Shown: positions 37,432 through 54,222 of the stretch, piece by piece | How the letters are laid out: every line of letters starts with the position of its first letter | How positions within the stretch are numbered: the first letter of the stretch is position 1 | Assembly: GCA_965230295.1 (NCBI GenBank) | Contig: OZ246001.1 | Location: 1,504,001-1,568,000 of the forward strand | Direction: 5' to 3' | DNA length: 64,000 nucleotides | DNA from: Marinicella sp. | Lineage (GTDB): Bacteria > Pseudomonadota > Gammaproteobacteria > Xanthomonadales > Marinicellaceae | Program-made: the position numbers and the translations under genes | The notes under the pieces: model-generated | Seen by the model: the letters and a program-made list of their open reading frames with translations, nothing else | What the model was told of the DNA's origin: nothing | Database searches by the model: none

Positions 37432-37580
37432 GGAAAGCTGCTGAACAGCTTGATCCGCCGAGCCAGTTGGTGAGCCTTGCGAATCAGAGGCGAAGAGCGC
37501 GAGGTAGCATGTCATGTTCGCCGTGGTCGCTTTCACTTTTGTCAGGAACAAAAGTGAATGAAGCCCCAAGAACATTCCTT
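37432..37580 (+). repeat. Dispersed structured intergenic element, copy C (shortest)
   Basis: Core at 37500-37580 aligns almost without gaps to 4671-4750. Confidence 0.8.
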
Positions 37581-37636
37581 TATGTGTTTAATCCATACCG
37601 AGAAAAACCTTATCAACTAAAAAACACAACAAACTA

Positions 37637-37664
37637 TTGCCTAAACATCAAAACCCGTTACAAT
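37637..37664 (+). promoter_or_regulatory. Sigma70 promoter of tRNA-Arg
   Basis: ttgcct-N16-tacaat ending 13 nt upstream of the tRNA. Confidence 0.65.
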
Positions 37665-37677
37665 TCATCTTTTCAAT

Positions 37678-37754
37678 GCGCCCATAGCTCAGCTGGATAG
37701 AGTAACTGGCTTCGAACCAGTTGGTCGGGAGTTCGAATCTCTCTGGGCGCGCCA
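37678..37754 (+). tRNA. tRNA-Arg (anticodon TCG)
   Basis: 77-nt cloverleaf: acceptor stem gcgccca/tgggcgc, anticodon arm actgg-cttcgaa-ccagt, T loop ttcgaat, encoded CCA. Confidence 0.97.
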
Positions 37755-37759
37755 TATAC

Positions 37760-37786
37760 AAAAACCACCCTCGCGGTGGTTTTTTT
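37760..37786 (+). terminator. Intrinsic terminator after the tRNA
   Basis: aaaaaccacc-ctcgc-ggtggttttttt. Confidence 0.85.
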
Positions 37787-37901
37787 ATGTCTGGTGTCCA
37801 GATTGTGAGAACTCTCTCAGTTCGACTGAAATGACTGGATCATTTCAGCCCGTCAGCTTGCTGACGACCCCTAAGGGGTGGAGCACATGGATGTGCGGAA
37901 T

Positions 37902-37920
37902 AATCTCTCTGAGTACGCCA
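37902..37920 (+). repeat. Degenerate copy of the tRNA 3' end (tRNA-linked repeat)
   Basis: aatctctctgagtacgcca versus aatctctctgggcgcgcca, 16/19 identical, 166 bp downstream. Confidence 0.65.
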
Positions 37921-37954
37921 ACAACTGACCATCCCTTATATTGATCGTTAAGAA

Positions 37955-39244
37955 TCAATGACTCTGACCCCATTGATCACTCCAACTTGTTGTATCTTGA
38001 TTCAAACTAAACCCTTTTATCTGATCCTTGCTGAGTGCGTATAAAGAAATAATGATAGATACAAGATCGGCATGAGTATTACCCACAACTCGCTTAGTAA
38101 AGTCAAATTCTGGTTTTTTACCAATTAATTCATTCAACCCTATTTTGTAAATGATTCCATTATTCAATTGTTTTACAATTTCAGGTTTAAAACAAAAAAT
38201 GAAAACGCCAAACACCCTCAACATAATTATGCCAAATCTGGTATCACTTTTTAGTCCATAACTTGCCATGGTGTGATAAATCATCAAATGCCTGATAAAT
38301 GTCTCAACCTCTCGCAAAGACAGTTGATTAGCTGCAATTAATGTGTTGAAAAATGTTTCATATCCTGATTTTGCCAAATCAGTTCTCTGAAGTAATTGAT
38401 TTCCAGATAATAGATTTTGAAAGTGTACTTTAGATGTGCTTATCACTTCCTGCTCTTGATAAACATTACCGGGTAAATTAAAACTGTATCCAATGAATTT
38501 GTCTAAATATCGTTTTGCATTAACACTACCATATGAGTGTTCAACAAAAGCCTCAATTTGTTTTAAGTTGGCAACCAATACAAACTGAACGCCCTCTACA
38601 TCGAATATATGCTTTATATTCTCAAGGACTTTTATCGTAAAGTTAGGATGGCATCTATCTAATTCATCTATGAAAATTATTAGCTGATCTGTTTCAGTAA
38701 TCTCTTTTAAAACCGCTTTCAATGCAGTGATTTTTTCTTCTGCCTTTTCATGACTCTTAAGAACGGAGTCAATCGATTTATCAATCATTTCTTTGAATGC
38801 CTGATCAAACTCATCTGGTATTCCTGCCGCGTCCTGTCTCAACAAAAATCCAACTGCTGCTCTACTGACTACACTTGTACCAAATTTCAAAACATTCATA
38901 GCTTTTTCACGAAACTCAATTTTATCGCCGCTTTGAGGCAACGAGTTTAAAATTGCAGCAAGTATGGTTGCTAGTGGTTCATTTGCATGATCTGCCTTGA
39001 AAGCATCAATGTATACTGTATGGTATGTTGTATTGTCATTTGTATCAGTAGTAGGAGATAGTTCCTTCAATAAATTTATCAACTTGTAACAGAATTCAGT
39101 TTTACCCACACCCCAGTCACCATCAATTATTAGCGGGCTAACTGGTATTTCTGATTTAAGCAATTTGATAGTTTTAATAGCAATTGACCGTCTCCTGAAC
39201 TCATCCCTATCAGAGAATTGTAATGAGCTTTGGTCTTCTTTCAT
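37955..39244 (-). CDS. KAP family P-loop NTPase
   Basis: Walker A GDWGVGKT, Walker B IIFIDELDRC, LE.IKHIF and YLDKFI. Confidence 0.88.
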   Translation of the reverse strand: MKEDQSSLQFSDRDEFRRRSIAIKTIKLLKSEIPVSPLIIDGDWGVGKTEFCYKLINLLKELSPTTDTNDNTTYHTVYIDAFKADHANEPLATILAAILNSLPQSGDKIEFREKAMNVLKFGTSVVSRAAVGFLLRQDAAGIPDEFDQAFKEMIDKSIDSVLKSHEKAEEKITALKAVLKEITETDQLIIFIDELDRCHPNFTIKVLENIKHIFDVEGVQFVLVANLKQIEAFVEHSYGSVNAKRYLDKFIGYSFNLPGNVYQEQEVISTSKVHFQNLLSGNQLLQRTDLAKSGYETFFNTLIAANQLSLREVETFIRHLMIYHTMASYGLKSDTRFGIIMLRVFGVFIFCFKPEIVKQLNNGIIYKIGLNELIGKKPEFDFTKRVVGNTHADLVSIIISLYALSKDQIKGFSLNQDTTSWSDQWGQSH

Positions 39245-39308
39245 TGAGCTTCTCCTTTATTGATTGAATGCTATTTTTTGTAAGATTGTTTTGAGTTTCA
39301 AAGCGAAA

Positions 39309-40496
39309 TTATTCTATTTTTGGATTTTGTTTTGAAATATTTTCTTCTTGTTTTAACTCATTCAACTTTTCAGAAAATTTTTCACATTTGATTGACTTTG
39401 GTTTTTTATTTTCTTTTGATGCAGCATTCAATTTTCTGCTGGAAATAATGCTTTTTGGAATTTCATAAGTCCCACAGTCTGGATTGTCTTGGATTTTCAC
39501 ATAGAGATGATTTCCGACATCAAGCATGACTAACAAGTTAACAGACTGTCTTGTTGAGCTTTCGTCAATCAACTCAGGAAACAAATTGTCTTTACTGGGG
39601 TTATTTAACATTAAAACTGTGACCGCCTTACCACCACCGATATTCATTGCATTCATTGCAAAACCAGCGTAAGAAAATTTGAAGAATTGAGGGTTTAACA
39701 AAAGCATCCACAAAAAAGCAGAAATGATGGCCGTAACTTTCAGATAGTCTTTGAATGACTTTCTTTCTCTGTTTTCTCCAGGTACTGTGAAAAAATATAA
39801 TATGACCAGCAAAGCAATAAACATGAAAGATATGATCACTATTTGAATGGTCGAAGAAGTGCTATTTGAAATACCGAACTCATTTAATGCTCTTAATATG
39901 ACATACGCAATTGACACCAGCCAAAATACTGATAAGAAAACAAGCATGAAATTTAGTATCGCTTCTAAAACATTTTGACCATTCATTTCTTCTTCGAGAG
40001 ACAAGAACAGGACAATTAACAAATGAACAATAAGAACCACATATACCCAGTAACTTTTGTTCGATAGTGCAATCGCATAAAAAACAACAGGTATTACGAT
40101 TGTTGCCAGATAAACCCAAAACCCACTCCTGTTACGATGACGTTTAATGTTTATTTTCTGCCAAAATGAAGGTTCCTCAGGCAGTTGTTTCCGGTTTTCG
40201 AACATGATCAGCCATGATTTTTCCTCACGATAAAATGTAGGTACTATCAGGAATAGCGACATATACACAACAATGAAGAATGAAATGCCAAAAATAGCCA
40301 GCAAAAGTGTGGGCAATGAAGATAATGAGATTGGCAATGGAATGTTGTGTTGTTTTACGTATAAAACCAAACTAAGAAAGGCTAATATGGTTCCTATGCT
40401 TAAACTTTTTTTAATCAGGTCAAAAACTACAGAAGCGTTTTGGTTTATGGAACCAAGTTCAATCCATAAGTTATCTTTATCTCTTTTTTCTTCCAT
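39309..40496 (-). CDS. Polytopic membrane hypothetical protein
   Basis: 395 aa, about 7 hydrophobic segments, gagg RBS. Confidence 0.65.
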   Translation of the reverse strand: MEEKRDKDNLWIELGSINQNASVVFDLIKKSLSIGTILAFLSLVLYVKQHNIPLPISLSSLPTLLLAIFGISFFIVVYMSLFLIVPTFYREEKSWLIMFENRKQLPEEPSFWQKINIKRHRNRSGFWVYLATIVIPVVFYAIALSNKSYWVYVVLIVHLLIVLFLSLEEEMNGQNVLEAILNFMLVFLSVFWLVSIAYVILRALNEFGISNSTSSTIQIVIISFMFIALLVILYFFTVPGENRERKSFKDYLKVTAIISAFLWMLLLNPQFFKFSYAGFAMNAMNIGGGKAVTVLMLNNPSKDNLFPELIDESSTRQSVNLLVMLDVGNHLYVKIQDNPDCGTYEIPKSIISSRKLNAASKENKKPKSIKCEKFSEKLNELKQEENISKQNPKIE

Positions 40497-40526
40497 TAAT
40501 TACCTCTCGTATGACAAAAGCTTTTG

Positions 40527-41714
40527 TTATTCGCCTTGCAGCTCAAACTCAACTATGTGGTTCCTAAACCATGTATTTTTCTGTTTCTTATAATTGTTGA
40601 ACATGCTTAATTTTTCCTTTGCTAATGGTTCAAAAGCAGAATTAGATGAAGCCAGCACTTTGAGTTGTTCAATTTTTCCTTTTTTGCTGATCATTGTTGC
40701 AATTTTCACCCAAGGGTGATTAAAGTTATGATGCTCATTTCTTTTGTATGCATATGCCAAAACTTCTAATTGATTAAAAGATTTTGTTTTAAATTCAATG
40801 CTTATTTCATCCTCAACTTTTTCACCATCTTTAATCGCGGGGTAAAACAGAAGGCTGTTCATTAATTGACCTATACTTTTTCTGAGATAAGGGTTTTGAT
40901 TGTATTTTTCACCCAACAAACTCTCCCAGCTTGTAATTTTTCCCGACTTATCTATCAGCAATTTATACTTATGCTCCTTAAATCCATCATGATTATATTC
41001 ATCTATTGAATCAACAGCCGTTAACAAAACGGGTGGATGTGAGTGTGCTGAGAAAATACGATGAAATTGTTTGAAAATTCCAGGTCTGGTTTCGTATTGT
41101 TCCCTTACCAGGTCATTATGTTGCTCCAGATGTTTTTCAAATTCAGGAATCTCCTCCATTGCTTTTTCCTGGCCATCCCAAAGAACGGGTTTGTTGTTTA
41201 AGATCAATAGATCGTCACTGTAGAAAAAATTCACATCTGTAACTTTTTTGGGCTTGATTTTTGATTTAATTTTAACTGTGTCTGCGATAACAACAGGCGA
41301 GATATCATACGGAATTTCAGCTATTTGATTCCTCATGGTTTGAAATAATGGTTCATCAAAAATTGAAATTTGCCCCTTTGGCAATTCATAATTAATGGTG
41401 ATTGAAGCCTTTGAGTTCACAGCTTGGCCATCAACGAACTTTGGCTTGAATTTAAATTTCAAACCAGCTGCAATGGATGTGTTATCGAATAAACCTGGAT
41501 GGCTTGAATCTAACACTTCAACACTATCAACTGATCCCAGTGAGTTTATGTGCATTAAAATTTTGACATTACCTTCTGTTCTGTTAATCAATGCTTTCAA
41601 TGGATATACGGGAGAAATACTGACAATAGGAATCACTTCTGAAGGCTCATTTTCCTGCGCAAATCCAATATTTACGAAACACAGTATTAATCCAAGTAAA
41701 AATATATTCTTCAC
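40527..41714 (-). CDS. Exported protein with TonB C-terminal-like domain(s)
   Basis: GTG start with ggagg RBS; P.YP..A....EG.V....IN..G.V..VEV..S....FD....A..KF.FKP...DG.AV. Confidence 0.75.
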   Translation of the reverse strand: MKNIFLLGLILCFVNIGFAQENEPSEVIPIVSISPVYPLKALINRTEGNVKILMHINSLGSVDSVEVLDSSHPGLFDNTSIAAGLKFKFKPKFVDGQAVNSKASITINYELPKGQISIFDEPLFQTMRNQIAEIPYDISPVVIADTVKIKSKIKPKKVTDVNFFYSDDLLILNNKPVLWDGQEKAMEEIPEFEKHLEQHNDLVREQYETRPGIFKQFHRIFSAHSHPPVLLTAVDSIDEYNHDGFKEHKYKLLIDKSGKITSWESLLGEKYNQNPYLRKSIGQLMNSLLFYPAIKDGEKVEDEISIEFKTKSFNQLEVLAYAYKRNEHHNFNHPWVKIATMISKKGKIEQLKVLASSNSAFEPLAKEKLSMFNNYKKQKNTWFRNHIVEFELQGE

Positions 41715-41786
41715 GTTAACCTCCATAAATTGATTCATAGTTACCTATTGCTTACCAATGAATTTATCTTTCTCAATCATTACTGG

Positions 41787-42092
41787 CTAATCACCAAATG
41801 CTTCACCTGTATTTCCATATGCATAGTCATGTAAGTTTGTTTCTTCATCACTAACAACTAATGCTCCATTAAAATCGTCAAAACAAATTCTTGGGTTGTA
41901 TGATTTGCCATTGAAGTTGATTTCACCTTGGTCGTGTAACATTGAAAGTTTAAAAACAAAGTCGCCAACTATTTCTTGAGCTGATTTTTTCTTTATTTTG
42001 TTTTCTTTTAGTGTTTGTTGTAACAGCAAAATCAATTCATATTGCCACTCAATTGCAAGTTCTTCGTATTCTTCTGATATTAGAGGTTCCAT
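41787..42092 (-). CDS. Small acidic hypothetical protein (possible immunity protein)
   Basis: 101 aa, starts 2 bp after the HEAT gene stop; function inferred from context only. Confidence 0.6.
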   Translation of the reverse strand: MEPLISEEYEELAIEWQYELILLLQQTLKENKIKKKSAQEIVGDFVFKLSMLHDQGEINFNGKSYNPRICFDDFNGALVVSDEETNLHDYAYGNTGEAFGD

Positions 42093-42094
42093 AT

Positions 42095-43258
42095 TTACTC
42101 CAGTGTTGCTAAGTAATCATCAATTATTTTAGAAATTGATTTGATCAAGGATTTTGACTCACTGAAAAAATACAAAACAGGTGTGTCAATATCATCCATG
42201 AAAATTTGAAAATACAATGTGCTGCTTCTTAACAATTGTTTTACCTGTAGTTCATAGGTACGGGTTTCTTCAACTTCGGTATCCAGAATCAAGTTTTCTA
42301 AGGCTTTTGGGTCAGTATCGATTTTGTTGCACAATGCATGTAAAAAGCCAGGAACATCTTCCATGTCAAATTCTGTGGAGGTCTCATACTTGTAAGCAAC
42401 CTTATTGCCTTTGATGTATTTAATGCCTTTTGGTAATTTCGGCACGATTTGTTTAACTGAGTTGATTTTTCTGAGTGCTTTTTTAGCTTGATTGCGATAC
42501 CAGCTTTCTTTGTGTTTTGTGTAGTATTCGACAAGTTCTTTTGCTTCGACTGCCTTTAGTTTTCCAAGGGCTTCAACACAAGTGATTACAAATAAATTTG
42601 ATTCGTCTAAACTTTTCTTTTCATTGATTATTTTAATTAAAATTGGAATCGCTTGTTTTCCCATTATTTTGGCAACTACCAAAGGTAAATAGTTTTTTCC
42701 TTCATCATTTATATCGGAGTTATTGAATAATGATAAAATATTTTCAAGCTCTTTTTCAGTGGCGACCGTTTCTAAAACTTGTGCAATTTCGAGCCTGAAT
42801 GAATTATCAGCATTTTCATATAATTGAATTAGTTTTGATCCTGCCATTCCTTGAGCTTTTCTTGATTTGAGTTTATTCACGAGTATTTCTTGTACATCTT
42901 GAGAGTAACCCATATCCAAGTGTTTTAAGATGATTTGAATAATTTGCTCAGTTAGTTGATGTTCTTTAATGCCTTTATAGTAATCAGTATTTAGACCCGT
43001 AGCCCGTACTTCTTCATAAAAATTTTGCAAATCAACTTCATTAGTTTTTATCTGTTCTTCTCTCAGCTGTTGCTTATATTTGTTGTAATTTCTCAGAGCA
43101 ACTCTTTCTTCACCTTCTAGCTTTAACATGTCATCGATAGACATTGCCTCAAATTTTTTGATCTCTTCATTACTTAAAGGTTGAACGTTATCTTCATTTG
43201 ATGCTCTTTGCATATCTTCGATAATTTCTTTTGCAGTTTTTGGTTTGTATTTTTTCAT
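42095..43258 (-). CDS. HEAT-repeat protein, candidate toxin immunity
   Basis: AIPILIK...VEALGKLKA.EA.E.V.......WYRNQAKKALRKI HEAT-like repeats. Confidence 0.75.
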   Translation of the reverse strand: MKKYKPKTAKEIIEDMQRASNEDNVQPLSNEEIKKFEAMSIDDMLKLEGEERVALRNYNKYKQQLREEQIKTNEVDLQNFYEEVRATGLNTDYYKGIKEHQLTEQIIQIILKHLDMGYSQDVQEILVNKLKSRKAQGMAGSKLIQLYENADNSFRLEIAQVLETVATEKELENILSLFNNSDINDEGKNYLPLVVAKIMGKQAIPILIKIINEKKSLDESNLFVITCVEALGKLKAVEAKELVEYYTKHKESWYRNQAKKALRKINSVKQIVPKLPKGIKYIKGNKVAYKYETSTEFDMEDVPGFLHALCNKIDTDPKALENLILDTEVEETRTYELQVKQLLRSSTLYFQIFMDDIDTPVLYFFSESKSLIKSISKIIDDYLATLE

Positions 43259-43299
43259 AAGTTAAGAGCCTGGAATTAATTTTGTTAGAGGTTCTATAT

Positions 43300-44383
43300 T
43301 TACTCCAGCGTTGCTAAGTAACTATCAATTACTTTAGAAATCGACTTGATCAAGGATTTTGATTCACTGAAAAAATACAATGTAGGTAAATCAATATCAT
43401 CCATGAAAATTTGAAAATACAATGTGCTGCTTCTTAACAGTTGTTTTACCTGTAATTCATAGGTACGGGTTTCTTCAACTTCGGTGTCAAGAATCAAGTT
43501 TTCTAAGACTTTTGGATCAGCATCGATTTTGTTGCATAATGCATGTAAAAAACCTGGAACATCTTCCATGTCAAATTCAGTGGAGGTTTCGTACTTGTAA
43601 GCAATCTTATTGTCTTTGATGTATTTAATGCCTTTGGGTAGCTTAGGTACGATTTGTTTAACTGAGTTGATTTTCCTAAGTATTTTTTTAGTTTGGCTTC
43701 GATACCAAGAATCTGAGTGGTTTAAATAAAACTCTGCCAGCTCCCTACCTTCAAAAGCTTTTAAGTTTCCTAACTCAATTAAACAATTAAATATGAATAA
43801 ATTGTTTTCATTTAAATTTTTCTTTTCTGATACTAATTTGATAAAAAGTGGAATGGCTTGTTTCCCCATTAACCTTTTTAAAACTGTGGGTAAGTTAGTT
43901 TTTCCGGCATCTGTGATTTTATTATCATGAAATAACTCTAAAATGCCTTTTAAGTCTTCTTCCGTAGCAACAGAGTCTAAGGCATGTCCGATTTCGTACC
44001 TAATTTCATCATTTGAGTTTCTATATTTGTCAATTAACTGCCGTCCCGCTATCCCACGAGCTTTTTTAGAGTCTAGTTTTTTAAATGATCGTTCTTTTTA
44101 CATCGACAGTGTAACCTTTGTTTAAGTGCCTTAGTAATATTTCAATTGCATTCTTGTTGAGTTGTTGGTCTGTTATTTCTTGAACTGATTTAGCATCAAT
44201 ATTATTTCGATTTAATTCACCTAATAAAGGTTTAATTGATTCCTTGTACTTTATTAGCTTTTCCTGCCTAAGTTCTTCTTTATAAGCGTTGTATTCCCTT
44301 AAGGGTATGCGTTCGGTACCTTTTAACTTTAGCATGTCATCAATTGACATAGCTTCAAATTTTTCAAATTCTTTTTTATTCAT
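43300..44383 (-). pseudogene. Frameshifted paralog of the HEAT-repeat protein
   Basis: One extra nt near 44083; the other frame continues KKLDSKKARGIAG...LMGKQAIP into ORF 43300-43869, collinear with 42095-43258. Confidence 0.8.
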
Positions 44384-44392
44384 GTTTTTACC

Positions 44393-44653
44393 TTAAAACG
44401 GTATGTGATTTATGATGCCATCATCTATAGCTTGTTGTAAGGGTTTTGTAAAAGTTGCTCCCTTTTTTACAAACAAATCAAACCTTAGGTTATTAGCTCT
44501 TGCAATAGCAGTATAATCTTTCAACTGTTGTGTATAACGGGGATGGTTGTTGTCTGACAATGTGTCAAGAGCAAAATCTTTAGCATAATCACAGGCTGCC
44601 GGTTCCGTTGGCCTGGTTGATATTTTTCTCAAATATTCTATGAATGTCACCAT
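44393..44653 (-). pseudogene. Orphan toxin tip, Tox-REase-7-like C-terminal fragment
   Basis: YTQQLKDY...FDLFV.......PL..AI..G.I..IP resembles the Tox-REase-7 C-terminus; the PD...EVK catalytic part is absent. Confidence 0.6.
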
Positions 44654-44709
44654 GTTTTATCTGTACTTAGTCAAATGGCATTTGATTCTGTTTGCTCATG
44701 AATTTATAT

Positions 44710-45276
44710 TTAACATTGTTGCTCTATTTGATTATAAAGTTCAGTCACAGCAGCATCAAAAGCTAAAACGATAACTGCTGAAATCATTGCTTTGGTTTTT
44801 CTCTCTCCAATGACACCTAAAGTGATCATTTTTCCATGCTTTTTTAAAGATCGCTCCTGTACTGATACAAACTTCTCAGATAAATCATTACAATCGCTAA
44901 CAGCTTCAACAGATACTTTTGCACTATAATAATTGAGCCGCATTCTGCCGTCCCATGAATAGCTTGAGTTAAACTTTGTTATTAAAATTGGTTTTATTTT
45001 GTCACGACAGTTCGCGTTAACATTGTAGTTTTTGAGCAATAACTTATTTTCAAATAAATACATGATCTCACCATCATACACTCGCTTCAAATTGTGCACT
45101 TCTGGTATTTCTGAACTAAACTCAACACACTTACTTTTAAATAATCCATCCGTGCAAATTTGAGAATTAGTAATTTTCAAACCATATTTATAATCTTCAA
45201 GATCCATCTTCATCGGATATTTTGATGCACATGATGAGATAAAGATTGTTACAAATAACAACATTTTATTCTTCAT
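44710..45276 (-). CDS. Lipoprotein, candidate Rhs immunity (paralog of 46500-47066)
   Basis: Lipobox ISSC-ASKYP; shares WDG..RLN.Y.AK, KHGK..TLG..GE..TKAMI and LAFDAAV. Confidence 0.75.
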   Translation of the reverse strand: MKNKMLLFVTIFISSCASKYPMKMDLEDYKYGLKITNSQICTDGLFKSKCVEFSSEIPEVHNLKRVYDGEIMYLFENKLLLKNYNVNANCRDKIKPILITKFNSSYSWDGRMRLNYYSAKVSVEAVSDCNDLSEKFVSVQERSLKKHGKMITLGVIGERKTKAMISAVIVLAFDAAVTELYNQIEQQC

Positions 45277-45342
45277 AGTTTTCCTCATAGAGGTTTGACA
45301 AAACCTGTATCAATTTGCCCTAGTAAATCTTTTAGAGCGATT

Positions 45343-45864
45343 CTATTTTTTTAACTTTTCGTCTAGATTAGATAAATCGTTGTTAATTTGATCTAATATA
45401 TTTTGAAGCCCTTTCGTCAACGCAGCTGAATCTTTGTTATTTTGCTTTTTACTGCCAGAAGTCAGAAAAACAAGTTCATCAGAATCAACTTCTGTTTTAT
45501 ACACTCTTTCATCGAGTAGGCTTGCAGAATCATAAAAATCGACTTTTGCTTCAATTTGAAACCTATTAACTGATACAGCCGCTCTTTTTGTGATAAAGCC
45601 CGAAAAAGTTTGAATGTCTTTTATTAAGGCTGAATGTTTGTCACAAACTTTTCGATTTGGAAGGCTTAAAAACTCATTTAGGTTGTAATAGTAAAGAATC
45701 TTTTCTTGTTTGGCTTTTGCTCGAACTGACAGTTTATTAAACTCTTGATCAAGTTGGATACACTGATTATAAGAGCCAGTTGCAATAGGCATATCACTCT
45801 TCAAGATCTTAGATTTACATGACGAGATTAATATCGTTATTAATAACAATAATTTAACCTTCAT
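45343..45864 (-). CDS. Lipoprotein, candidate immunity (paralog of 45854-46378)
   Basis: Lipobox ISSC; shares CI..D, EK..Y..NL..F, VS..RF and FL.SG.KK. Confidence 0.72.
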   Translation of the reverse strand: MKVKLLLLITILISSCKSKILKSDMPIATGSYNQCIQLDQEFNKLSVRAKAKQEKILYYYNLNEFLSLPNRKVCDKHSALIKDIQTFSGFITKRAAVSVNRFQIEAKVDFYDSASLLDERVYKTEVDSDELVFLTSGSKKQNNKDSAALTKGLQNILDQINNDLSNLDEKLKK

Positions 45865-46378
45865 AGTTTTCCTTATAAGGGTTTGATAAGCCTGTCTCAA
45901 TTTGCTCTATTAAATCTTTCAGTACGACTTTGATAGCTATTTCATCTTGTTTTAACTTTTTTTCTCCTGATGCCAAAAAAGAATGTGAATCTGCGTCAGA
46001 TTGCGAAAAATATTCCTTTTTCTCAATTATTTTATTTTGGTAATAGATATTGACAGTGGCATACATTAAAAACCTATGCAACGACACTTCTTTTCTTACT
46101 GTAACAGCTTCTCCAATTGTTTTTATGCTTTCGATCTCTGCTTTGTAATTAAAGCAATCACCTGTGTCATTTAGTTCAATAAAATCAGACAGATTAAAAA
46201 GGTAATACACTTTTTCTTTATTGTATTTTGAATAAACCGATTGATTATCTGAAAGTGACTTATCAAAGTTTATACATGAATTGTGAAAAACAATTTTCGT
46301 TGATTCACTCTTTATGTGTATTGGCTTACCACATGCGGTTAGAATGAAAATCACCAGTAATGTAATCATTTTTTTCAT
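45854..46378 (-). CDS. Lipoprotein, candidate immunity
   Basis: Lipobox LTAC; ggag RBS; directly follows the duplicated toxin tip. Confidence 0.72.
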   Translation of the reverse strand: MKKMITLLVIFILTACGKPIHIKSESTKIVFHNSCINFDKSLSDNQSVYSKYNKEKVYYLFNLSDFIELNDTGDCFNYKAEIESIKTIGEAVTVRKEVSLHRFLMYATVNIYYQNKIIEKKEYFSQSDADSHSFLASGEKKLKQDEIAIKVVLKDLIEQIETGLSNPYKENYEG

Positions 46379-46393
46379 AAAAATTCTCCAAAT

Positions 46394-46453
46394 TTAATAG
46401 CATCCGCTCCACTCGTGTAAAGCACAACCAGCTCCTGGATAGCCAGCAGGTTG
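46394..46453 (-). repeat. Remnant of the last 19 codons plus stop of an Rhs toxin allele
   Basis: Encodes QPAGYPGAGCALHEWSGCY*, identical in protein to 47084-47143. Confidence 0.92.
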
Positions 46454-46499
46454 TTATTTAATGGACTGCCTATCCTGAATCACCTTTTTATTGAAATCC

Positions 46500-47066
46500 T
46501 TACTGACAATGCTGATTTATTTGGCTGTAAATATCTGATACTGCAGCATCAAACGCCAGAACAACTACTGCTGCAATCATGGCTTTAGTTTCTTCTTCTC
46601 CAACTAATCCAAGGGTTACAATTTTCCCATGTTTTCTTAATTTGATTTCTTGAGTGGAGGAAAATGTTTTAAACGAATCCTGACAAATGTAACGAGCTTT
46701 TACAGAAATTTTTGCTTTATAGATATTCAATCTTTTCATTCCATCCCAATGAAAAATAGAATCAATTTTTTCAATAAAGATTGGTTGATCAAACTTACAT
46801 TTATTTTTTGTGTCAAAGATCAATGATAAATCATTTCTATCATAACTATAGAGAACCATACTATCTCTTTCTTCAATTAAGGGTAAATTTAGTGGAATAG
46901 TTTGATCAAACATAAAACATTTATTTTGAATGGAAATTTCTTCAACAATGTTTGAATCAGTAATTTCTATACCTTTCTCATACTCGTTCAAATTGACTCT
47001 CTTGGGATATTTTGAAGCACATGAACTAACTAAGATGCTTACAACTATAAATAAATAAACTTTCAT
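46500..47066 (-). CDS. Lipoprotein, probable cognate immunity of the Rhs toxin
   Basis: Lipobox VSSC; starts 17 bp downstream of the toxin stop. Confidence 0.75.
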   Translation of the reverse strand: MKVYLFIVVSILVSSCASKYPKRVNLNEYEKGIEITDSNIVEEISIQNKCFMFDQTIPLNLPLIEERDSMVLYSYDRNDLSLIFDTKNKCKFDQPIFIEKIDSIFHWDGMKRLNIYKAKISVKARYICQDSFKTFSSTQEIKLRKHGKIVTLGLVGEEETKAMIAAVVVLAFDAAVSDIYSQINQHCQ

Positions 47067-47083
47067 AATTTTTTCTCAATTTT

Positions 47084-50000
47084 TTAATAACATCCACTCC
47101 ACTCATGTAGAGCACAACCAGCTCCTGGATAACCAGCAGGCTGTTTTAATAATGTCGCCGATGGATTCAACAATTTACCCAGGAAACCACCATTCACAAT
47201 ATCCAAAGGCCCTAGCTCAACCCTGACATTACTGTGCGACACATTGCCAAAAACAAATGATTTAGACACGCCGTCTGGGAAATAGCCTCTGCTCACCAGA
47301 TTATTGGCATCCATTGATCCCAAGCTGATGCCGCCAATGGTTTGGTTTCTTTGACCATTCACAATGGCATCATAACCAGATGCTGTAATTAAGCCTTGGA
47401 AGCCCAAAGCAATATCAACTAAATCGAATACCAACCCTATTGTTCTATTCAGACCACTATACTTTCTGGAGTCAATAACTCCTCCACTGTTTCGAGAGAG
47501 TATCCCTCGAACCCCTTGACCAGCTTCTTTATCTGTGTAGTTATCCTCATAAAACCTCGTACCGATCAACTTATTCCCTGCAAAACTCATGGCGACCAGA
47601 GCTAAATTCAGTTCTGCTAAACTCATACCATTCTTTTTCGCAAAGCGTTCAAGTTCTTCGGTTGCTTTGAATTTACCGTAATGAGAAACCAGGTTTTGTA
47701 CCACACCACCAGCACCAACAAACTTACCAGAAGCATCAATGATACCACCGCGTAAGAATGAGAGTACCGCGCCTGCTTCGGGGTCAAGACTGCTGATCAC
47801 TTGCGCAGCTACATCAAAAGCGTTAATACCACCAGCTACAGTACTGGCTCCACCACTGGCAGATGTGGATACTGGAGCAGTTTCAGATATGGCAGTATTT
47901 GTTGCAACATCTCCTGCACCACCTGCTGCTGCCTTAGAGCCTGAATTGGCTGCGTCTGCCCCTCCGGTATTTGCAAATTGACTGCCCACAAAAGCCACTG
48001 CCCCTGCTACCAGCCCAGCACGAAGAGCTGATCTCAAGCTGCCAGTGATGATATAGGTGCTGGTGAAACCAACCGTAAATGCCGTCCAGAATATATTGAA
48101 CCCAAGGCCAGGTAGTATAAAACTCAATGTGACAGCAACAACAGCTGCCACCAATTTTCTCAGAGAAAAATACCCTGTGGGATCAGTGAATGAAAGCGGG
48201 TTGTTATGAACATACACATAACGGTTAAAGCCCTGTGAGGTATTGGGGTCTTGTACCACGGGGTCGGCTTGGAGCATCTTGCCAAGTTCTGCATCGTAAA
48301 TCCTGCCTCCCATATTGATGATACCAAATACATCAAGCATCTCATGGCCTGTGAATCCTTTGGTGGTGTAATCAGACAAGTAATCCCGTGACAAGGTGGA
48401 TGAAAAATCATCCCAATTGGCAGGGACTCGGCGTTCACCCCAGGCTGAAAAGCTCATGGCTTGGAGAAAATGGCCACTTGAGTCTGTGATAACATCCACC
48501 GATCCCAGATGATCATGAAACAGATAGGTTTCCTGGGTTGAGTTGTTGGTTTCGGTGATCACGGCGAAGTTACCCAAATGCCGCTTAAAGGCAATCTGCC
48601 CATTGGCATTGTATTCAACCTCCACATTGCCCATAAAGTGGGTGACGGTGGTTTCATCATCTGAGTTGGTATCTGTACGTGAGTAAGGTTCTTCTGTATT
48701 GTTGTAGCGATATATGCTCTCATCAATGGGGTCATTGCTGTTTGACCCTGTGTAGATGCGCTGAATTTTGTTGAAACCAGTATAAGCAACATTGCGATCA
48801 ACCAGTTGTCCTTGCCCATTTCTGAAATTGGTCGAACGGGTCATGTTGCCACGGTCATCATAGGTAAATATTTGAGCGCCTTTGGATTGAACCTGATGTG
48901 GTGATGAACCAATGGCAGATGCGTTGCCTGTGAGGTAGGCATAACTTTGTCCATCCTTACTGGTCAGGTTGCCTTTGGCATCGTAACCAGTGACCTGATG
49001 CGCTACATTGCCAGTGGTGATGTTGCAGTTTTGACCTGAGTTATTGAATCGATAGGTATCAGTCAACCTGTTTAAGCGATCATATCTAAAACATTCGGAT
49101 TGATTATTTCCTATGTCTGATCTTTTGACCAGATTACCAAGAGAGTCATACTCATAAACATATTGCTGATGGGGTGCAGTAATCGAATTGAGCCAACCAC
49201 GGGTAGGGTGGAATGTGTAAATAGCACTCAAGGTGGCATCACCTGCCTTACGATCAGAAATGACATTGCCCCATTTGTCGGTCTGATTGATGCGGTAGTA
49301 TTCCTTGGTGCCATCTGCTGCATCGGTGACGTGTGACAGAAAGCCCCTGGCATTGTAGTGGTTTTCTGTGGCTTTGCCTGATGCGTCTTGCTGGTATTTC
49401 AGGCGTGAGAACTGATCGTAATAGAGGTTGGCCTGATAATCACAGGTCAAGCCGATACAGACATTGTCGGCATCGGTGAATGAAATGTCTGTGGTCTGAG
49501 GGCGTTTGAACCCATCATAAGTATGGCTTTGGGTGTAACTGATGGAGCCAACAAAGGTGAGTTTGGCTTCGGTTTCAAGCAAACCATTGGTGGCATTATA
49601 AGTATTGATGTTACGGGTTAATTGAACAGTGTCATCCCAGCTTTCAACCTGGTGTGCCCTGCCGAGGGTGTCGTAATAGGTCTTGATGCTATTATCTTCT
49701 GCATCAATGGTTTCGACCACTTCGCCCAGGGCATTGTAGAAGATTTCACTGAAACCCGTATCCACATCATCACTTGAGGTTTTTCTACCCCTACGATCAT
49801 AAGTGTTTTCTATCAATCGCTCGATGAGGTTGTTGGCATCACGGGTCAGGTTTAACAAAGCACCTTGTGAATCGTAAACATAGGTCAGTGTATTTTTATA
49901 TTCAGGGTTGGCACCTGCAATGTCAAAATCCTTTACCTCTATGAGCTGATCCAAGGCATTGCGTTTTTCCTGTCTTCTTTGGCCTGCATCATTGGTGAAG

Positions 50001-53000
50001 TGGGTGGTAAAGCCTGCATAACTCATGGCTTCATCTGAGGTGTCAGGCAGGATCATTTTGGTTGAGCGATTATAACGATCAAATTCAGTGTGGGTTACTG
50101 GAATATTTCCTACTGATGCACCGAGAAAATGATCCCCCTCTGATTTGATCTTTCTTCCAAACTGATCATGCCAAACTTTGTTCACCACATAACGGTCATC
50201 ACCTGATGTGCTACCATCATTGGTTGCGTTAGAGCTCTGGGTGATGGTGGCAACTTCTCTGCCTAATGAGTCCATATAGATGTAGCTCAACGATCCACCT
50301 GCATCCATTTTTCTAACACGAATTTGTGCATCCATACCTGAGGAGCAAGCATAAGTATCTGTCAAACCAGTACACCATTGTCTTGAAGTTTGTGTCCAGG
50401 TGCCAAGCGTATTTCTGGTTGAAGTCAATCGTCCAAAATCATCATAAGCATTGGTGGTGATTATGCCCAACAAATCAATGGATGTCAGCGGATTGCCGTA
50501 TATATCCCGTGTCAGAACATCGGTGAGGTTTTGTTCTTCTGTATTGTATGTTTCATCCACATAACGACCTTTGGAATCAAAGGTGGTGCGTTCATAGCGG
50601 TGGATGTGATATGGACTTGCTGCATTGGCTGCTGTCGGTGTGTTATTTGCACACTGACTCGAAGTTAAAGTCGCACCTGAGCAAGTGATAACTTTGGTGG
50701 TGTTACCAAAACCATCATATTCATAGCGTTTACGCAAGAACAGTTCATCACCACCAGTGGGGTCTTGACGTTCTTCAATCAACAAACCATTGGTGTAGTC
50801 ATAATCAAACTCACTGACAGTGGTGATGCTGAGCTGACCTGTTCTGGTTTTGACGGTTGTTGATGTTTCAAGCAGTCCAATTAACCAACGAGACTCGCCT
50901 GAGTTTAGGGTTGTGATGTTGCTGTATGTGTTGGTCGTTGTGTTGGTTTGTAATGTTGTGCCACTACCATCTTTGATGGTCACTGTGTGTACCAAGGGAT
51001 TGCCAAATGAATCGTGCGTGGTGCTCTGAGTCTCGGTTTTGAGCAATGTGCCATCTTCTGGTGAATGGGTGTCCAAAGTAACCGTTTGGACATATGGAAA
51101 TGTGCTTTTGCTGGTGGGACTGAGTTGATTTGGTGTGATGCTGATGGTTGATAACGTGGTATCAGTACCTGCCAGATTCATATTTTCTTCTATGCGAGGA
51201 ATGTCTTCACAAGGCAAGCCAGGTTCGCATGGGGGTGGGAAACATGTATCATCATCGCCACAATCAGGAGGCACATTGCTGGCATCATAAAAATCATCAT
51301 TCAGTTGTTTAATCTGGGTTCCAGAGGGTATCCCGTTGTAGGGAAAGTCCTGCCGGTATGTCGTGGTTGACTCCAGTATTTTGGCATCACTATCACTGGC
51401 AGCTTTAACAGGGGTTGCTGTGATGACTTTTTCAAAACCTAAAAATCCACGACCGCCTGTTTGAATCCTGGCATTTTCATAACGATAACGCATGGTGTTC
51501 TGAAATGATTCATCTCCCTCAATGGGTGAATCGACATCAACCTGTCTGACCACATAGACTGCACCCATCACATCAAGCACAGGTGAACCAAGACCATAAT
51601 TTAAAGCCGTGGTTTGGTGGTTGCCTTGTTTGTAGGTGCTTGAAAAAGTCAGGGGTCGATACAACACATCGGTCGATGCCCCAAGTCCATCTGTAAAAGT
51701 TGTAATTTGATCGGTGGTCAAATAGACATCTTCTCTTGGGTATACATTTTGGTCACCTGCATTATCTATTCTGACATGGTCCATGGTGCCATCGCCATTC
51801 AAGTCCATAAACAAGTTCAGGTTTTGGTTTACATTAATGGCACTTGCACCGATGAATGTAGCAGTGCCTAAAAACCCATCACCCACCCATATTTTAGCCA
51901 AATAATTTTGGTTCCCTGTGGTATCTGGGTAAACAACATCTGTATATCCATCTAAGTTGTAGTCAAACATCTGTAAGTGATCTTCATTGTCAACTCCTAC
52001 GTCGCTGCTGAAAGATGTAAACCCTTTACCTGTTGCTAGTCTGTATTGCCAATTGTTTGATGTGTTCTTAGCAAATACATCCGTTAAACCATCAGCATTG
52101 ATGTCGATGAACTTGATGTCTTGATCTGCATCGTCCAATAAAGTTGATGTCTCCTTGATGTAGTAATGTTCAGATTCATAGTCCAAATCACCACCGGCCA
52201 GTCCATTGCCTATAAAAGCCACCCAATGAGATGAGTCCAGCACTTCCATAGGCTCACCTTGTAGATGAAAATCCTCGCCTGCTGATATAAATCGATAAGC
52301 TTGTTCATCCAAGTTTTCGATCAATGGCGGGTTTTCTGTATAATAAACATCTACCCTAAGAATCAAATCAGCCACGCCATCACCATTGACATCATTGGCA
52401 ATGACATTGATGTCATCATCCTGATGAAATCGATAAATCATATATTCATTGGGGTCAAGTGGTGGGGTTATTTCAGGAATTTGACTGACATCACCGGGCA
52501 AATCAATACCAACCAAGGTATTGGAAAAGGCATAACTGCCTCCTTGTCTTTCCAAATACCTGACTGACAAACCAGCAACAGGATACAACAAGTCTGCTAA
52601 ACCATCGCCATTCATATCAATGATTTGAAAATCACTGTTAGCTGTTCCAGTTAAACCTGTTGATGTTGAGACACTAGAAAACCCCACTGTGCCAGTACTG
52701 GCTAAATGTACCACCCATGAAGTACCCACCTGTATCATCAAGTCTTCTCTGCCATCGGCATTGTAATCAATCAAATGCCATTTGTTATCTATCTCTGTCC
52801 CAGCCGGTGCAGAAATGGTTGTGGTGGTGGCAATGCCGAACCCTGTTTGCCCATTGGCCAAAGCCACCTTGAATGTATCGGTGTTATCATCCACAAAAAC
52901 CAAGTCAGCCCGACCATCAGCATTCACATCACCGAGTTTGGAACTTTTAACATCTGTTGGAAAAGAAACATAAGCTCCAGTATCCGTTGCCCTGATTTGT

Positions 53001-54106
53001 TTGTTAGGTTCAGACCATGTAAAGTTACTTGCAGGAAAACAGGTTGCCCCTCTACATTCTTGAATTGAAGTTAAAATTGATCTGAATGTCGTGGTAGATA
53101 AGTCATAAAGTAGGGTGTAATCTCGAACCAATGTACCATCGATTCTTGACTCAATTGATGCCAGTCTTTGAGTCGTAGCAAACTCCACCCCACCTAGAAA
53201 TGAGGAAAATTCATCAGTCCTCGTTTCATAAATGAAACTGATGTTGTTATAAGGGGCAAGGGCTTGGGTTACATTACCGGTATAATCAATATCAGTCAGT
53301 ACAAATTCGCCATCAGCAAGTTTGTTGTAGCTGTAATCAATGTAGTTACTCATGGTGTCCTGGTAACGGTTGATGGCCCATGTATAAGTTTTGCCGTTGA
53401 TACCAGGATCAGAGTGCAAGACTGTTATGTTTGAATCAGTGGTATTGCCGTAAAAACTTTTCGAACCGTCTTTACGTTCTACAGTGAAATAATCTGGATT
53501 GTTACCACTGCCACCAACGGAAGTTATTCGGGCAAACTGTTCTTTTTCGGTTCGATACTCTGTGCCATCATCACCATATGAACCTCCATTAGAAACAAAC
53601 AACCTTTCTCCATTTAAACAAAACTTATCTTCAGTCCCATATGTTATGGGAGATGGCGTAATGTCACCAACCACATCTTTTGATTCAGCTGTTTCTCTAC
53701 AGCGTGAGATCAGTGTCACACCAGAAATAGACCAACCCACACCGACATGTCCATTGCCACCTGCTGATGAGTATTGCAAAGCCACTTTGGGTGAAACACC
53801 AGCGGAGCCTACACCAGCAAAGATTGGAATGGTGTATGCTGCTTGACCTGTTTGATCCACCATAAAATCACCAGCGGTGAATCCAACTTCTTCATGACCA
53901 GTTTCCAGTGTAGGCAAAGTTCCAGAGAACGGCGTTTCAGATGAAAGTGTAGGAGCGGCTACAGGAGCCTCAAAACCAGTGGCAAAAATTAAATCGATAC
54001 TTCTGGTTTCTTCAGAGTCGTAGTGATTTGTAACAGGTAAGATACCAGCACCGACTGTGCAACATGCTGATAATAGGATGATGACGAAGGGTTTGAGGCT
54101 TTTCAT
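47084..54106 (-). CDS. SpvB/FG-GAP/Rhs-repeat polymorphic toxin (TcB-TcC-like fusion) with signal peptide
   Basis: G.A.Y.IPI...G.AG..P..AL.YSS..GNG.VGVGWS (SpvB-like), D.NGDG..D repeats, GRGFLGFE, YD repeats, and the core RIYD...QADP...YVHNNPLSFTDPTGY. Confidence 0.92.
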   Translation of the reverse strand: MKSLKPFVIILLSACCTVGAGILPVTNHYDSEETRSIDLIFATGFEAPVAAPTLSSETPFSGTLPTLETGHEEVGFTAGDFMVDQTGQAAYTIPIFAGVGSAGVSPKVALQYSSAGGNGHVGVGWSISGVTLISRCRETAESKDVVGDITPSPITYGTEDKFCLNGERLFVSNGGSYGDDGTEYRTEKEQFARITSVGGSGNNPDYFTVERKDGSKSFYGNTTDSNITVLHSDPGINGKTYTWAINRYQDTMSNYIDYSYNKLADGEFVLTDIDYTGNVTQALAPYNNISFIYETRTDEFSSFLGGVEFATTQRLASIESRIDGTLVRDYTLLYDLSTTTFRSILTSIQECRGATCFPASNFTWSEPNKQIRATDTGAYVSFPTDVKSSKLGDVNADGRADLVFVDDNTDTFKVALANGQTGFGIATTTTISAPAGTEIDNKWHLIDYNADGREDLMIQVGTSWVVHLASTGTVGFSSVSTSTGLTGTANSDFQIIDMNGDGLADLLYPVAGLSVRYLERQGGSYAFSNTLVGIDLPGDVSQIPEITPPLDPNEYMIYRFHQDDDINVIANDVNGDGVADLILRVDVYYTENPPLIENLDEQAYRFISAGEDFHLQGEPMEVLDSSHWVAFIGNGLAGGDLDYESEHYYIKETSTLLDDADQDIKFIDINADGLTDVFAKNTSNNWQYRLATGKGFTSFSSDVGVDNEDHLQMFDYNLDGYTDVVYPDTTGNQNYLAKIWVGDGFLGTATFIGASAINVNQNLNLFMDLNGDGTMDHVRIDNAGDQNVYPREDVYLTTDQITTFTDGLGASTDVLYRPLTFSSTYKQGNHQTTALNYGLGSPVLDVMGAVYVVRQVDVDSPIEGDESFQNTMRYRYENARIQTGGRGFLGFEKVITATPVKAASDSDAKILESTTTYRQDFPYNGIPSGTQIKQLNDDFYDASNVPPDCGDDDTCFPPPCEPGLPCEDIPRIEENMNLAGTDTTLSTISITPNQLSPTSKSTFPYVQTVTLDTHSPEDGTLLKTETQSTTHDSFGNPLVHTVTIKDGSGTTLQTNTTTNTYSNITTLNSGESRWLIGLLETSTTVKTRTGQLSITTVSEFDYDYTNGLLIEERQDPTGGDELFLRKRYEYDGFGNTTKVITCSGATLTSSQCANNTPTAANAASPYHIHRYERTTFDSKGRYVDETYNTEEQNLTDVLTRDIYGNPLTSIDLLGIITTNAYDDFGRLTSTRNTLGTWTQTSRQWCTGLTDTYACSSGMDAQIRVRKMDAGGSLSYIYMDSLGREVATITQSSNATNDGSTSGDDRYVVNKVWHDQFGRKIKSEGDHFLGASVGNIPVTHTEFDRYNRSTKMILPDTSDEAMSYAGFTTHFTNDAGQRRQEKRNALDQLIEVKDFDIAGANPEYKNTLTYVYDSQGALLNLTRDANNLIERLIENTYDRRGRKTSSDDVDTGFSEIFYNALGEVVETIDAEDNSIKTYYDTLGRAHQVESWDDTVQLTRNINTYNATNGLLETEAKLTFVGSISYTQSHTYDGFKRPQTTDISFTDADNVCIGLTCDYQANLYYDQFSRLKYQQDASGKATENHYNARGFLSHVTDAADGTKEYYRINQTDKWGNVISDRKAGDATLSAIYTFHPTRGWLNSITAPHQQYVYEYDSLGNLVKRSDIGNNQSECFRYDRLNRLTDTYRFNNSGQNCNITTGNVAHQVTGYDAKGNLTSKDGQSYAYLTGNASAIGSSPHQVQSKGAQIFTYDDRGNMTRSTNFRNGQGQLVDRNVAYTGFNKIQRIYTGSNSNDPIDESIYRYNNTEEPYSRTDTNSDDETTVTHFMGNVEVEYNANGQIAFKRHLGNFAVITETNNSTQETYLFHDHLGSVDVITDSSGHFLQAMSFSAWGERRVPANWDDFSSTLSRDYLSDYTTKGFTGHEMLDVFGIINMGGRIYDAELGKMLQADPVVQDPNTSQGFNRYVYVHNNPLSFTDPTGYFSLRKLVAAVVAVTLSFILPGLGFNIFWTAFTVGFTSTYIITGSLRSALRAGLVAGAVAFVGSQFANTGGADAANSGSKAAAGGAGDVATNTAISETAPVSTSASGGASTVAGGINAFDVAAQVISSLDPEAGAVLSFLRGGIIDASGKFVGAGGVVQNLVSHYGKFKATEELERFAKKNGMSLAELNLALVAMSFAGNKLIGTRFYEDNYTDKEAGQGVRGILSRNSGGVIDSRKYSGLNRTIGLVFDLVDIALGFQGLITASGYDAIVNGQRNQTIGGISLGSMDANNLVSRGYFPDGVSKSFVFGNVSHSNVRVELGPLDIVNGGFLGKLLNPSATLLKQPAGYPGAGCALHEWSGCY

Positions 54107-54222
54107 GATAACGTCCCTTTAAATTTAAAGTTTAATTCTCACATTGCTGTAAACAGCAACCATTCCCTTTCTTGTGCCTAGTCTAGCAGCACAAATGTTA
54201 TTTTTGCAACAATAAACACAAA

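Follow-up and report, generated by a model that had tools for sequence, protein, structure and literature searches.

Stacks of orphan immunity genes behind a polymorphic toxin can be explained by displacement, a principle that is already published (Kirchberger 2017, PMC5361080; Jackson 2009, PMC2935791; Zhang 2012, PMC3482391). In the T6SS (type VI secretion) arrays of Vibrio cholerae, as presented in Kirchberger 2017 (PMC5361080), an incoming effector-immunity module uses an upstream homology anchor and an illegitimate downstream join, by which the old effector is lost and the old immunity gene is kept; in one of the cases given there the 3' end of an effector was shifted back. For rhs systems the account in Jackson 2009 (PMC2935791) describes a displacement logic with core-bearing tips and circular intermediates, and a preprint (10.64898/2026.07.13.738213) mentions insertion sequences and Xer-dependent recombination beside Rhs immunity arrays of Xenorhabdus and Photorhabdus, a kind of array that is described as protective against competitors. 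The present study concerns a 64-kb window of the Marinicella sp. assembly GCA_965230295.1 (contig OZ246001.1, 1,504,001-1,568,000), in which the gene of an Rhs-type polymorphic toxin is followed by four lipoprotein genes (A, B, B' and A'), two HEAT-repeat genes, the first of them frameshifted (HEAT-fs), and the gene of a small protein. All coordinates given below are positions within this window, and the array lies on its minus strand. Immunity is the function that best suits the genes 3' of the toxin, and several of these genes are orphans that carry a 3' stub of their former upstream neighbour. We favour, at a probability of roughly 60%, a heterogeneous polyimmunity array that was built by serial displacement of the C-terminal end of the toxin.

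As far as the V. cholerae arrays are described in Kirchberger 2017 (PMC5361080), the resemblance is close: a conserved upstream gene, a variable toxin end, a stack of orphans in one direction and no integrase are found in both, and both contain a shifted 3' end of a former effector, the join of which is ascribed in that paper to homology-facilitated illegitimate recombination. The paralogues described there are not mutual closest relatives; in the window this holds for A and A' by identity (71% to a foreign protein vs 44% to each other), is marginal for B and B' (34% vs 31%) and is reversed for the two HEAT genes (72% to each other vs 57-62%). The locus differs from the V. cholerae arrays in its carrier, an SpvB/TcdB/Rhs protein that has a Sec signal and is not accompanied by T6SS genes in the window, in the measurable scar that every step has left, one of them the tail of an immunity gene, and in its position on an island at a tRNA site. 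With the rhs systems of Jackson 2009 (PMC2935791) it would share the displacement of an incumbent C-terminal end by lateral alternatives, and it does share a core of higher GC content and the location on an island that is often found there; however, the dissociated tips of that account keep a piece of core and a whole toxin end, whereas in the present array no core piece and only the last 6-65 codons of the toxins remain. The polyimmunity loci outlined in Zhang 2012 (PMC3482391) are likewise tandem, same-strand sets of immunity genes from several families, with short spacers, no intact toxin between them and variable content. Those loci are often located beside XerC/D-type recombinases and usually apart from toxin loci, whereas the present array stands directly 3' of a full toxin, has no recombinase nearby and contains toxin-end scars. 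Neither insertion sequences nor Xer-dependent recombination, both mentioned for Xenorhabdus and Photorhabdus in the preprint 10.64898/2026.07.13.738213, were seen at this locus. Stacking of single genes in one direction at a fixed point, with the older ones further out, also recalls integron cassettes, from which the array is set apart by the lack of IntI or another tyrosine recombinase in the window and of attC-like repeats; its repeats are coding 3' ends.

New in comparison with these systems are the type of carrier, the rare toxin family with its lipoprotein partners, the completeness of the scar record, a tip copy with synonymous differences only and the island setting. The finding extends rather than changes the current understanding of orphan immunity arrays. 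It provides an unusually legible record of toxin turnover, in which the stub of each step can be assigned to a gene family and according to which a single carrier would have exchanged a nuclease end for a hydrolase-like one. The locus also yields concrete candidate toxin/antidote pairs and brings two unnamed lipoprotein immunity families to light.

Resident toxin and its candidate antidotes

The toxin comprises, in this order, an N-terminal signal peptide with a lipobox-like LSAC motif, SpvB, FG-GAP and TcdB_toxin_midN domains and RHS repeats (Pfam), and ends in a C-terminal toxin domain for which no Pfam or NCBIfam match was obtained. Among the proteins scored in a collection of 5.8 billion, the family of this domain consists of seven long proteins, its own included, with P0002 as the closest relative. 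The family has an invariant serine in a G-x-S-L-G motif and a Cys..Cys-Tyr tip. In a model of low confidence (predicted local distance difference test, pLDDT, 62) the serine is located between a predicted strand and a helix, like a nucleophile elbow. A Foldseek search with this model gave no match at E <= 0.001, cutinase, dienelactone hydrolase and lipase rows being on top (best E 0.42), and a search of the Atlas with the domain led only to sub-0.9 leads, namely C-terminal clusters of polymorphic toxins. It is reasonable but unproven to assume that the resident domain is a hydrolase acting outside the cytoplasm; a toxin of this kind would fit lipoprotein antidotes with four invariant cysteines.

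Four invariant cysteines are indeed present in the mature part of the A-type family. This family is very rare, with eight clusters in the 5.8 billion proteins, two of which are the window's own, and lipoprotein A belongs to no Pfam or NCBIfam family. Its model is of better quality (pLDDT 77, predicted template modelling score 0.78); the best row of a fold search with it, Cj1090c, had an E value of 3.5e-3, which is not significant, and LptE/PqiC-like lipoproteins ranked below. Scans with an alignment of the toxin domain identified four genomic and three metagenomic toxin loci, from which pairings of toxin tips with downstream genes can be read. Toxins with a ..LHExSGCY tip have an A-type gene directly 3' in all three loci with context, that is in the window and in L017 and L019, the loci of the two closest toxins with context; L018, the contig of which ends just past the toxin, is excluded from the counts. 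Toxins with a ..CxHxFQCYL.. tip are directly followed by a B-type gene in L013 and at one orphan end of L019. Judged by position and pairing, lipoprotein A is likely the cognate immunity protein of the resident toxin.

The B-type assignment is based on the lipoprotein that stands directly 3' of the related toxin in L013, to which B is 28-34% identical (BLASTP E 1e-14 to 2e-17). B' shares 31% of its residues with B and 34% with the L013 lipoprotein; B and B' are weakly similar at the DNA level (self-blastn E 0.37), and their identity at the protein level is 31-33%. A and A' align with 58% identity over 570 nt in the same self-comparison, and the A' protein is 71% identical to the metagenomic protein P0009, 49% to the A-type gene product of L017 and 44% to A. 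The paralogues are thus probably of foreign origin: A' is closer to P0009 than to A, and B' is marginally closer to the L013 lipoprotein than to B, so that A/A' and B/B' appear as separate imports and not as local duplicates. A common ancestry of the A- and B-types found no firm support, since the hhalign value of 89.7% that was obtained with signal peptides falls to 11.8% (E 0.0025) once these are removed; BLASTP gave an E value of 0.054.

Another toxin gene of the SpvB/Rhs type is present in the same genome (L012, G000:C1:3226053-3231905); its product of 2290 aa ends in a C-terminal part of another kind, and downstream there is a single candidate immunity gene of 217 aa and no array. In Rheinheimera nanhaiensis (L014:10534-16248) a lipoprotein gene stands behind a relative of the toxin, and after it come ~14 genes in tandem that encode small secreted proteins (105-120 aa), two of which are almost the same; the locus resembles a large polyimmunity array of mostly uniform content.

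Scars in the array and in related loci

An earlier reading of the locus, made from the letters alone without database searches (the sequence-only reading), had proposed this gene order with four scars, and both were recovered by a sensitive self-blastn of 37000-48500 and by reading of the sequence. A, B, B', A', HEAT-fs, HEAT and possibly the small gene are all on the minus strand with spacers of 0 to ~130 nt, and B and B' overlap where the one ends and the other starts. The immunity genes are separated by nothing longer than stubs of 6 to ~86 codons, with no intact toxin gene or cassette; three scars are toxin ends and one is the tail of an immunity gene. Beyond the toxin-tip, B-tail, HEAT and A/A' repeats the self-comparison revealed none of note. 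When the whole Rhs protein and its gene were compared with 37900-47083 (tblastn, blastn), the sole match was the tip copy, corresponding to residues 2301-2340. Scanning of the gene borders within the array gave no attC-like inverted repeats, and Phage_integrase (PF00589) was not matched in the window, all eight matches of the genome lying outside 1,504,001-1,568,000. The array is therefore free of a recognisable core remnant, attC-like repeat or recombinase, as the sequence-only reading had stated. Three points of it need adjustment: with about 200-260 nt the REase-7 remnant exceeds the scar size of ~20-150 bp given there, the block of low GC content continues beyond 41787 to 37921 with three more genes, and att-like repeats of a tRNA-Arg 3' end bound the whole unit.

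Scar 1, directly 5' of B, is the last 19 codons, stop codon and spacer of a toxin of the resident family (QPAGYPGAGCALHEWSGCY, followed by the stop). The repeat (47145-47083 vs 46455-46393) is 90% identical over 63 nt (E 3e-17). It encodes the same 19 residues as the resident tip, and its six codon differences are all synonymous, an outcome with a chance of ~1.4e-4 given that 23% of the possible single changes are synonymous. With a GC content of 0.52 it stands out from an array of ~0.30 (0.29-0.32). Since all differences are synonymous, this sequence has presumably diverged within a working toxin gene elsewhere and has hardly decayed since, and is not a decaying local copy. The synonymous tip copy and the identities of the lipoproteins together favour different sources of the paralogues over local duplication. 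The 57 nt 5' of the tip copy (46456-46512), which overlap the last codons of lipoprotein A, show an in-register identity to the toxin gene of 25/57 vs a background of 14.7 +/- 3.4, a value that is reached by 0.3% of random pairs. Scar 1 may in truth be ~120 nt long, and its join may coincide with A's stop codon; old toxin sequence may have supplied the last part of A.

Scar 2 reads ..IALKDLLGQIDTG.. with one frameshift; it abuts the stop codon of B' and runs into the start of A'. The repeat on which its assignment is based (45927-45809 vs 45340-45221, 79% over 120 nt, E 2e-24) pairs it with the junction of the B end and the B' start.

Scars 3 and 4b are ends of REase-7 toxins. Scar 3 matches Pfam Tox-REase-7 with E 0.0017 over profile positions 50-83 of 84, below the curated cut-off, and by BLASTP (E 5e-13) the 71 C-terminal residues of a full-length REase-7 toxin from the congener G010 (L010); the homologous part covers about the last 65 of its 86 codons. 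The G010 toxin has a complete Tox-REase-7 domain (57.7 bits), ends with ..LKFIPGT directly 5' of a HEAT gene, and its stop codon overlaps the start of that gene. The G010 HEAT gene is 57-63% identical to the HEAT genes of the window and reaches 36.2 bits to Pfam HEAT_2, above the cut-off, whereas the intact HEAT gene of the window reaches 25.7 bits and remains below it. Scar 4b, KLIPGS and a stop, is located 3 nt 5' of the intact HEAT start. A search with the C-terminal part of the G010 toxin against 1.84 billion representatives gave 1239 relatives at E <= 0.001; among the best 150 of these, [IVL]P with no more than three residues behind it forms the end of 132, and IPG with no more than two that of 22, as in ..LKIIPGS. 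By these family C-termini, KLIPGS is the canonical end of a REase-7 toxin. HEAT repeats are listed as an immunity partner of Tox-REase-7 in Zhang 2012 (PMC3482391). In 400 genomes of the class, Tox-REase-7 (PF15649) had two matches, neither with a HEAT gene 3' of it, and the HEAT protein gave one weak partial match to plasmids.

The two HEAT modules (44378-43285 vs 43172-42080) are 72% identical over 1094 nt, beyond the stop codon and into the next gene. The pair is a mosaic in which identity is ~60% for the first 700 nt and rises to 89-93% in the last ~400 nt, the switch being near 43700, which points to conversion between the copies once they had come to stand side by side. The stretch of high identity (43285-43700 vs 42080-42495) includes 15 nt past the stop codon, and the C-terminal ~115 residues of the HEAT protein are also well kept in G010. 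Relatives of the array genes stand directly 3' of toxins elsewhere: this was found for HEAT (G010), for the A-type (L017, L019) and for the B-type (L013, L019). It was not found for the small gene, which, unlike the other three, has no toxin-neighbour link. A homologue of the small protein with 56% identity is encoded in G014 (L011:6914-7219), alone among unrelated small genes and adjoining a ribbon-helix-helix-like open reading frame (ORF).

The array varies among relatives. At the DNA level, 40 relatives were searched, 23 of them members of the genus, with one genome per species. None of the 40 has the full array, which is therefore not fixed, and partial matches were obtained in three: G010 with the 3' part of HEAT, G014 with the small gene, and G005 with a trivial match of 46 nt. 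Carriers of the same type are present in 13 of the 23 congeners at E <= 1e-20, and in three of them the carrier is likely orthologous, with 62% identity in G021 and 57-59% in G010 and G013. The G021 carrier is 62% identical over residues 1-2088 and unrelated beyond; downstream of it there are a different immunity candidate and an orphan toxin end of the classical form. In G013, a transposase gene splits an orphan piece of core.

Stubs recur in the toxin family. When toxin ends were compared with the DNA downstream (tblastn), toxin-3' stubs were found between lipoprotein genes in three of the seven family loci examined: in the window, in L016 (~60 codons, E 7e-11) and in L019 (~30 codons with stops, E 2e-6). 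In L019 (1817-7044 of a metagenome contig) the stub is located 5' of a B-type gene and is accompanied by two classical orphan toxin ends, one of which begins in the Rhs core and the other in a Gly/Ala-rich linker. Together with the family pairings in other loci, the scars support the core of the sequence-only reading, that the downstream genes are most plausibly immunity genes and several of them orphans, each with the stub of a former neighbour.

Proposed serial displacement and its alternatives

We infer a series of events in which incoming DNA would have recombined upstream in the conserved Rhs or linker part and would have carried in a new toxin domain together with one or more immunity genes belonging to it. 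Downstream, an illegitimate or microhomology join would have occurred inside the 3' end of the resident toxin, and once inside the first resident immunity gene. The old toxin would thereby have been lost, and its last 6-65 codons and the old immunity genes would have been retained and pushed outward. Five steps can be proposed. The oldest would have delivered a REase-7 toxin with HEAT and the small gene, the second another REase-7 toxin with HEAT and the small gene, the third a hydrolase-like toxin with a B-type gene and A', the fourth a toxin with B and B', and the fifth the present toxin domain with lipoprotein A. The carrier would thus have borne REase-7 nuclease ends twice, with HEAT partners, and then serine-hydrolase-like ends three times, with lipoproteins. 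The retained genes would shield the cell from kin and competitors in which the older toxins are still in use. This proposal is supported by the origin of every scar from the 3' end of a gene type that is found elsewhere in front of the same immunity family, and by a carrier that is conserved up to a variable end, as the comparison with G021 demonstrates. It also predicts that the toxin-proximal gene is the cognate one, which agrees with the pairing of the LHExSGCY tip with A-type genes in three of three loci.

Several observations weigh against serial displacement. No intermediate arrays were seen in the collection, which holds one genome per species. Elsewhere, tips of the type found 5' of B stand in front of A-type genes, and B-types follow another tip. 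A maximum-likelihood tree of eight A-type proteins gives no support either way at the key fork, and the case for separate origins of A and A' is therefore one of percent identities and not of the tree. The HEAT copies are closest to each other (72% vs 57-62%), so that duplication or conversion presumably had a part in this pair. The array lies within an island, and the events may therefore have occurred in other hosts. All four joins, finally, left only ~20-260 nt of the upstream gene, whereas L019, G021 and G013 keep whole orphan ends or core pieces. Random joins are not expected near a 3' end four times, and the model needs a supplement, be it selection (for instance for a functional ribosome-binding region in front of the gene that is kept), trimming at a later time or a process directed at tips. 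The published model has no explanation for the tight clustering of joins at gene ends.

This clustering would be in line with a capture of immunity genes without their toxins. Cassettes of an immunity gene and the 3' tip of its neighbour would insert by RecA-type recombination over the short tip, for example by a single crossover of a circular piece of gene and tip, so that the resident toxin stays and genes are added beside it. Three units of the array are in fact flanked by direct repeats of a gene tail of the same kind: A by two toxin tips (90% over 63 nt), B' by the B tail and a B-type tail (79% over 120 nt) and HEAT-fs by two REase-7 ends. The toxin tip is conserved and its copy intact, and circular intermediates with single crossovers were proposed for Rhs tips in the account of Jackson 2009 (PMC2935791). 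However, capture predicts that the cognate gene is pushed away from the toxin, yet A-types stand directly 3' of this tip in all three loci. Only the toxin-tip repeat is long and similar enough for a crossover, so that a usable homology to the resident sequence at the toxin exists for one of the four scars, KLIPGS and its stop amounting to just 21 nt. Even 60 nt at 90% identity are a poor substrate for homologous recombination, which also counts against capture, and free cassettes were not seen. We consider toxin-less capture unlikely, and less likely than displacement, as a route to the same structure. The statement of the sequence-only reading that short-homology recombination is how the immunity genes were acquired, taken as a gain of modules without toxin, was thus not upheld in this form, the published displacement model yielding the same structure. 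A related and more far-reaching idea, which we regard as quite improbable, is that 3' tips together with the ribosome-binding spacer are portable recombination handles by which single immunity genes move without toxin or dedicated recombinase. If true, such handles would constitute an integrase-free, cassette-like system of antidote exchange and would explain why joins are found near the 3' end of a former neighbour here, in L016 and in L019.

Local tandem duplication with divergence, or trimming of classical orphan modules down to their tips by deletion, appears just as doubtful. The tandem pairs A/A', B/B' and HEAT/HEAT, of which the HEAT copies are closest to each other, would be natural products of duplication; classical orphans are present in relatives, and the remnant 5' of the L019 B-type gene is decayed, as trimming would suggest. 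A', on the other hand, shares far more identity with a foreign protein than with A, the tip copy has synonymous differences only, unlike a sequence decaying in place, the array contains no core remnant anywhere, and four independent deletions would each need to end just before an immunity gene.

A different question is where the scars were formed. The array may have been complete, scars included, before the 16.7-kb island integrated and may then be a record of earlier hosts; this tentative view, to which we give somewhat less than an even chance, is compatible with either scar mechanism. It is in line with the att-like direct repeat that bounds 37921-54640 and with the uninterrupted site in G003, with cargo downstream of tRNA-Arg that differs between G003 and G015, and with the GC content of 0.29-0.36 of all genes at 37955-47066 vs 0.46-0.48 of the flanks. 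Whole arrays are described as being transferred between strains in Kirchberger 2017 (PMC5361080). The Rhs carrier itself argues in the opposite direction, since its GC content of 0.44 is host-like and since orthologous carriers in three congeners at 57-62% identity indicate that it may have a long history in the genus. A second copy of the island, by which its arrival could be dated, was not found.

A chance or assembly artefact was considered as a source of the repeats and rejected. The repeats are highly significant, and Logan contigs of run X1 agree with the window over 43410-47300 with 0 differences, the frameshift included, and break only at the HEAT repeat; run X1 is possibly from the same sample as the genome and thus checks the assembly and not the biology.

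Island setting and neighbouring genes

The toxin, the array and a defence candidate form one inserted island (37921-54640). It occupies a second site that resembles a tRNA-Arg 3' end, 167 nt downstream of tRNA-Arg(tcg) (37678-37754), and the right copy of the att-like repeat (37902-37920 and 54627-54640) is located beyond the toxin gene and a 115-codon ORF. The congener G003 has the empty site with its terminator, 167 nt after tRNA-Arg (site comparison including L020:4025-4330), and its similarity to the window breaks off at 37924 and starts again in a methyltransferase-like gene at 55651; in G015 the region downstream of tRNA-Arg holds other cargo. The ORF list, Pfam and the PF00589 scan of the genome revealed no integrase or tyrosine recombinase in the island, and neither promoter-like (40 vs 53) nor terminator-like counts (14 vs 11.6) in the island are above those of shuffles. 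The features are compiled in Table 1.

Table 1 Features of the toxin locus and its immunity array, with positions in the window and the basis of each assignment
Feature	Position	Strand	Basis
Rhs-type polymorphic toxin, 2340 aa	47084-54106	-	Pfam
Variable C-terminal toxin domain	~47842 to 47084	-	Divergence from G021 orthologue
Lipoprotein A, likely cognate immunity protein of resident toxin	46500-47066	-	ORF with lipobox
Scar 1, toxin-tip copy	46393-46455	-	Self-blastn
Lipoprotein B, putative B-type orphan immunity gene	45854-46378	-	BLASTP to L013 lipoprotein
Lipoprotein B', putative second B-type orphan	45343-45864	-	Similarity to B and L013 lipoprotein
Scar 2, tail of third B-type gene (~52 nt)	45289-45342	-	Self-blastn and translation
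Lipoprotein A', putative A-type orphan immunity gene	44710-45276	-	Similarity to A, P0009 and L017 gene
Scar 3, Tox-REase-7 3' remnant, 86-codon ORF	44393-44653	-	Pfam below cut-off and BLASTP
Putative HEAT-repeat immunity gene, one frameshift at ~44075-44095	43300-44383	-	ORF listing, self-blastn
Scar 4a, first 15 nt of a copy of the small gene, ATG changed to ATA	43285-43299	-	HEAT-module homology running past stop
Scar 4b, KLIPGS and stop, last six codons of another REase-7 toxin	43262-43282	-	Congener toxin end
Intact putative HEAT-repeat immunity gene, 387 aa	42095-43258	-	Pfam HEAT_2 below cut-off and G010 similarity
Small protein, 101 aa, 3' of HEAT in both modules	41787-42092	-	ORF, Pfam
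Left island junction, degenerate tRNA-Arg 3'-end copy	37902-37920	+	Homology to G003 ends at 37924
Right island junction, tRNA-Arg 3'-end copy and terminator hairpin	54627-54675	+	G003 has both halves joined

Four further genes lie inside the island. Just upstream of the toxin gene there is the 115-codon ORF (54223-54570, minus strand), which has no family match. Between the immunity array and the defence candidate, a secreted protein of 403 aa (40527-41738, minus strand) is encoded, with an N-terminal TonB_C domain (76.6 bits) and a C-terminal part without assigned family; its TonB_C part is 47% identical to one in G005. The defence candidate itself is a KAP-family P-loop NTPase (37955-39244, minus strand), which has a full-length match (E 5.6e-140) to PDC-S20, a candidate family of phage defence in PADLOC. 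It forms the tRNA-proximal end of the island and adjoins the gene of a multi-pass membrane protein of 395 aa (39309-40496).

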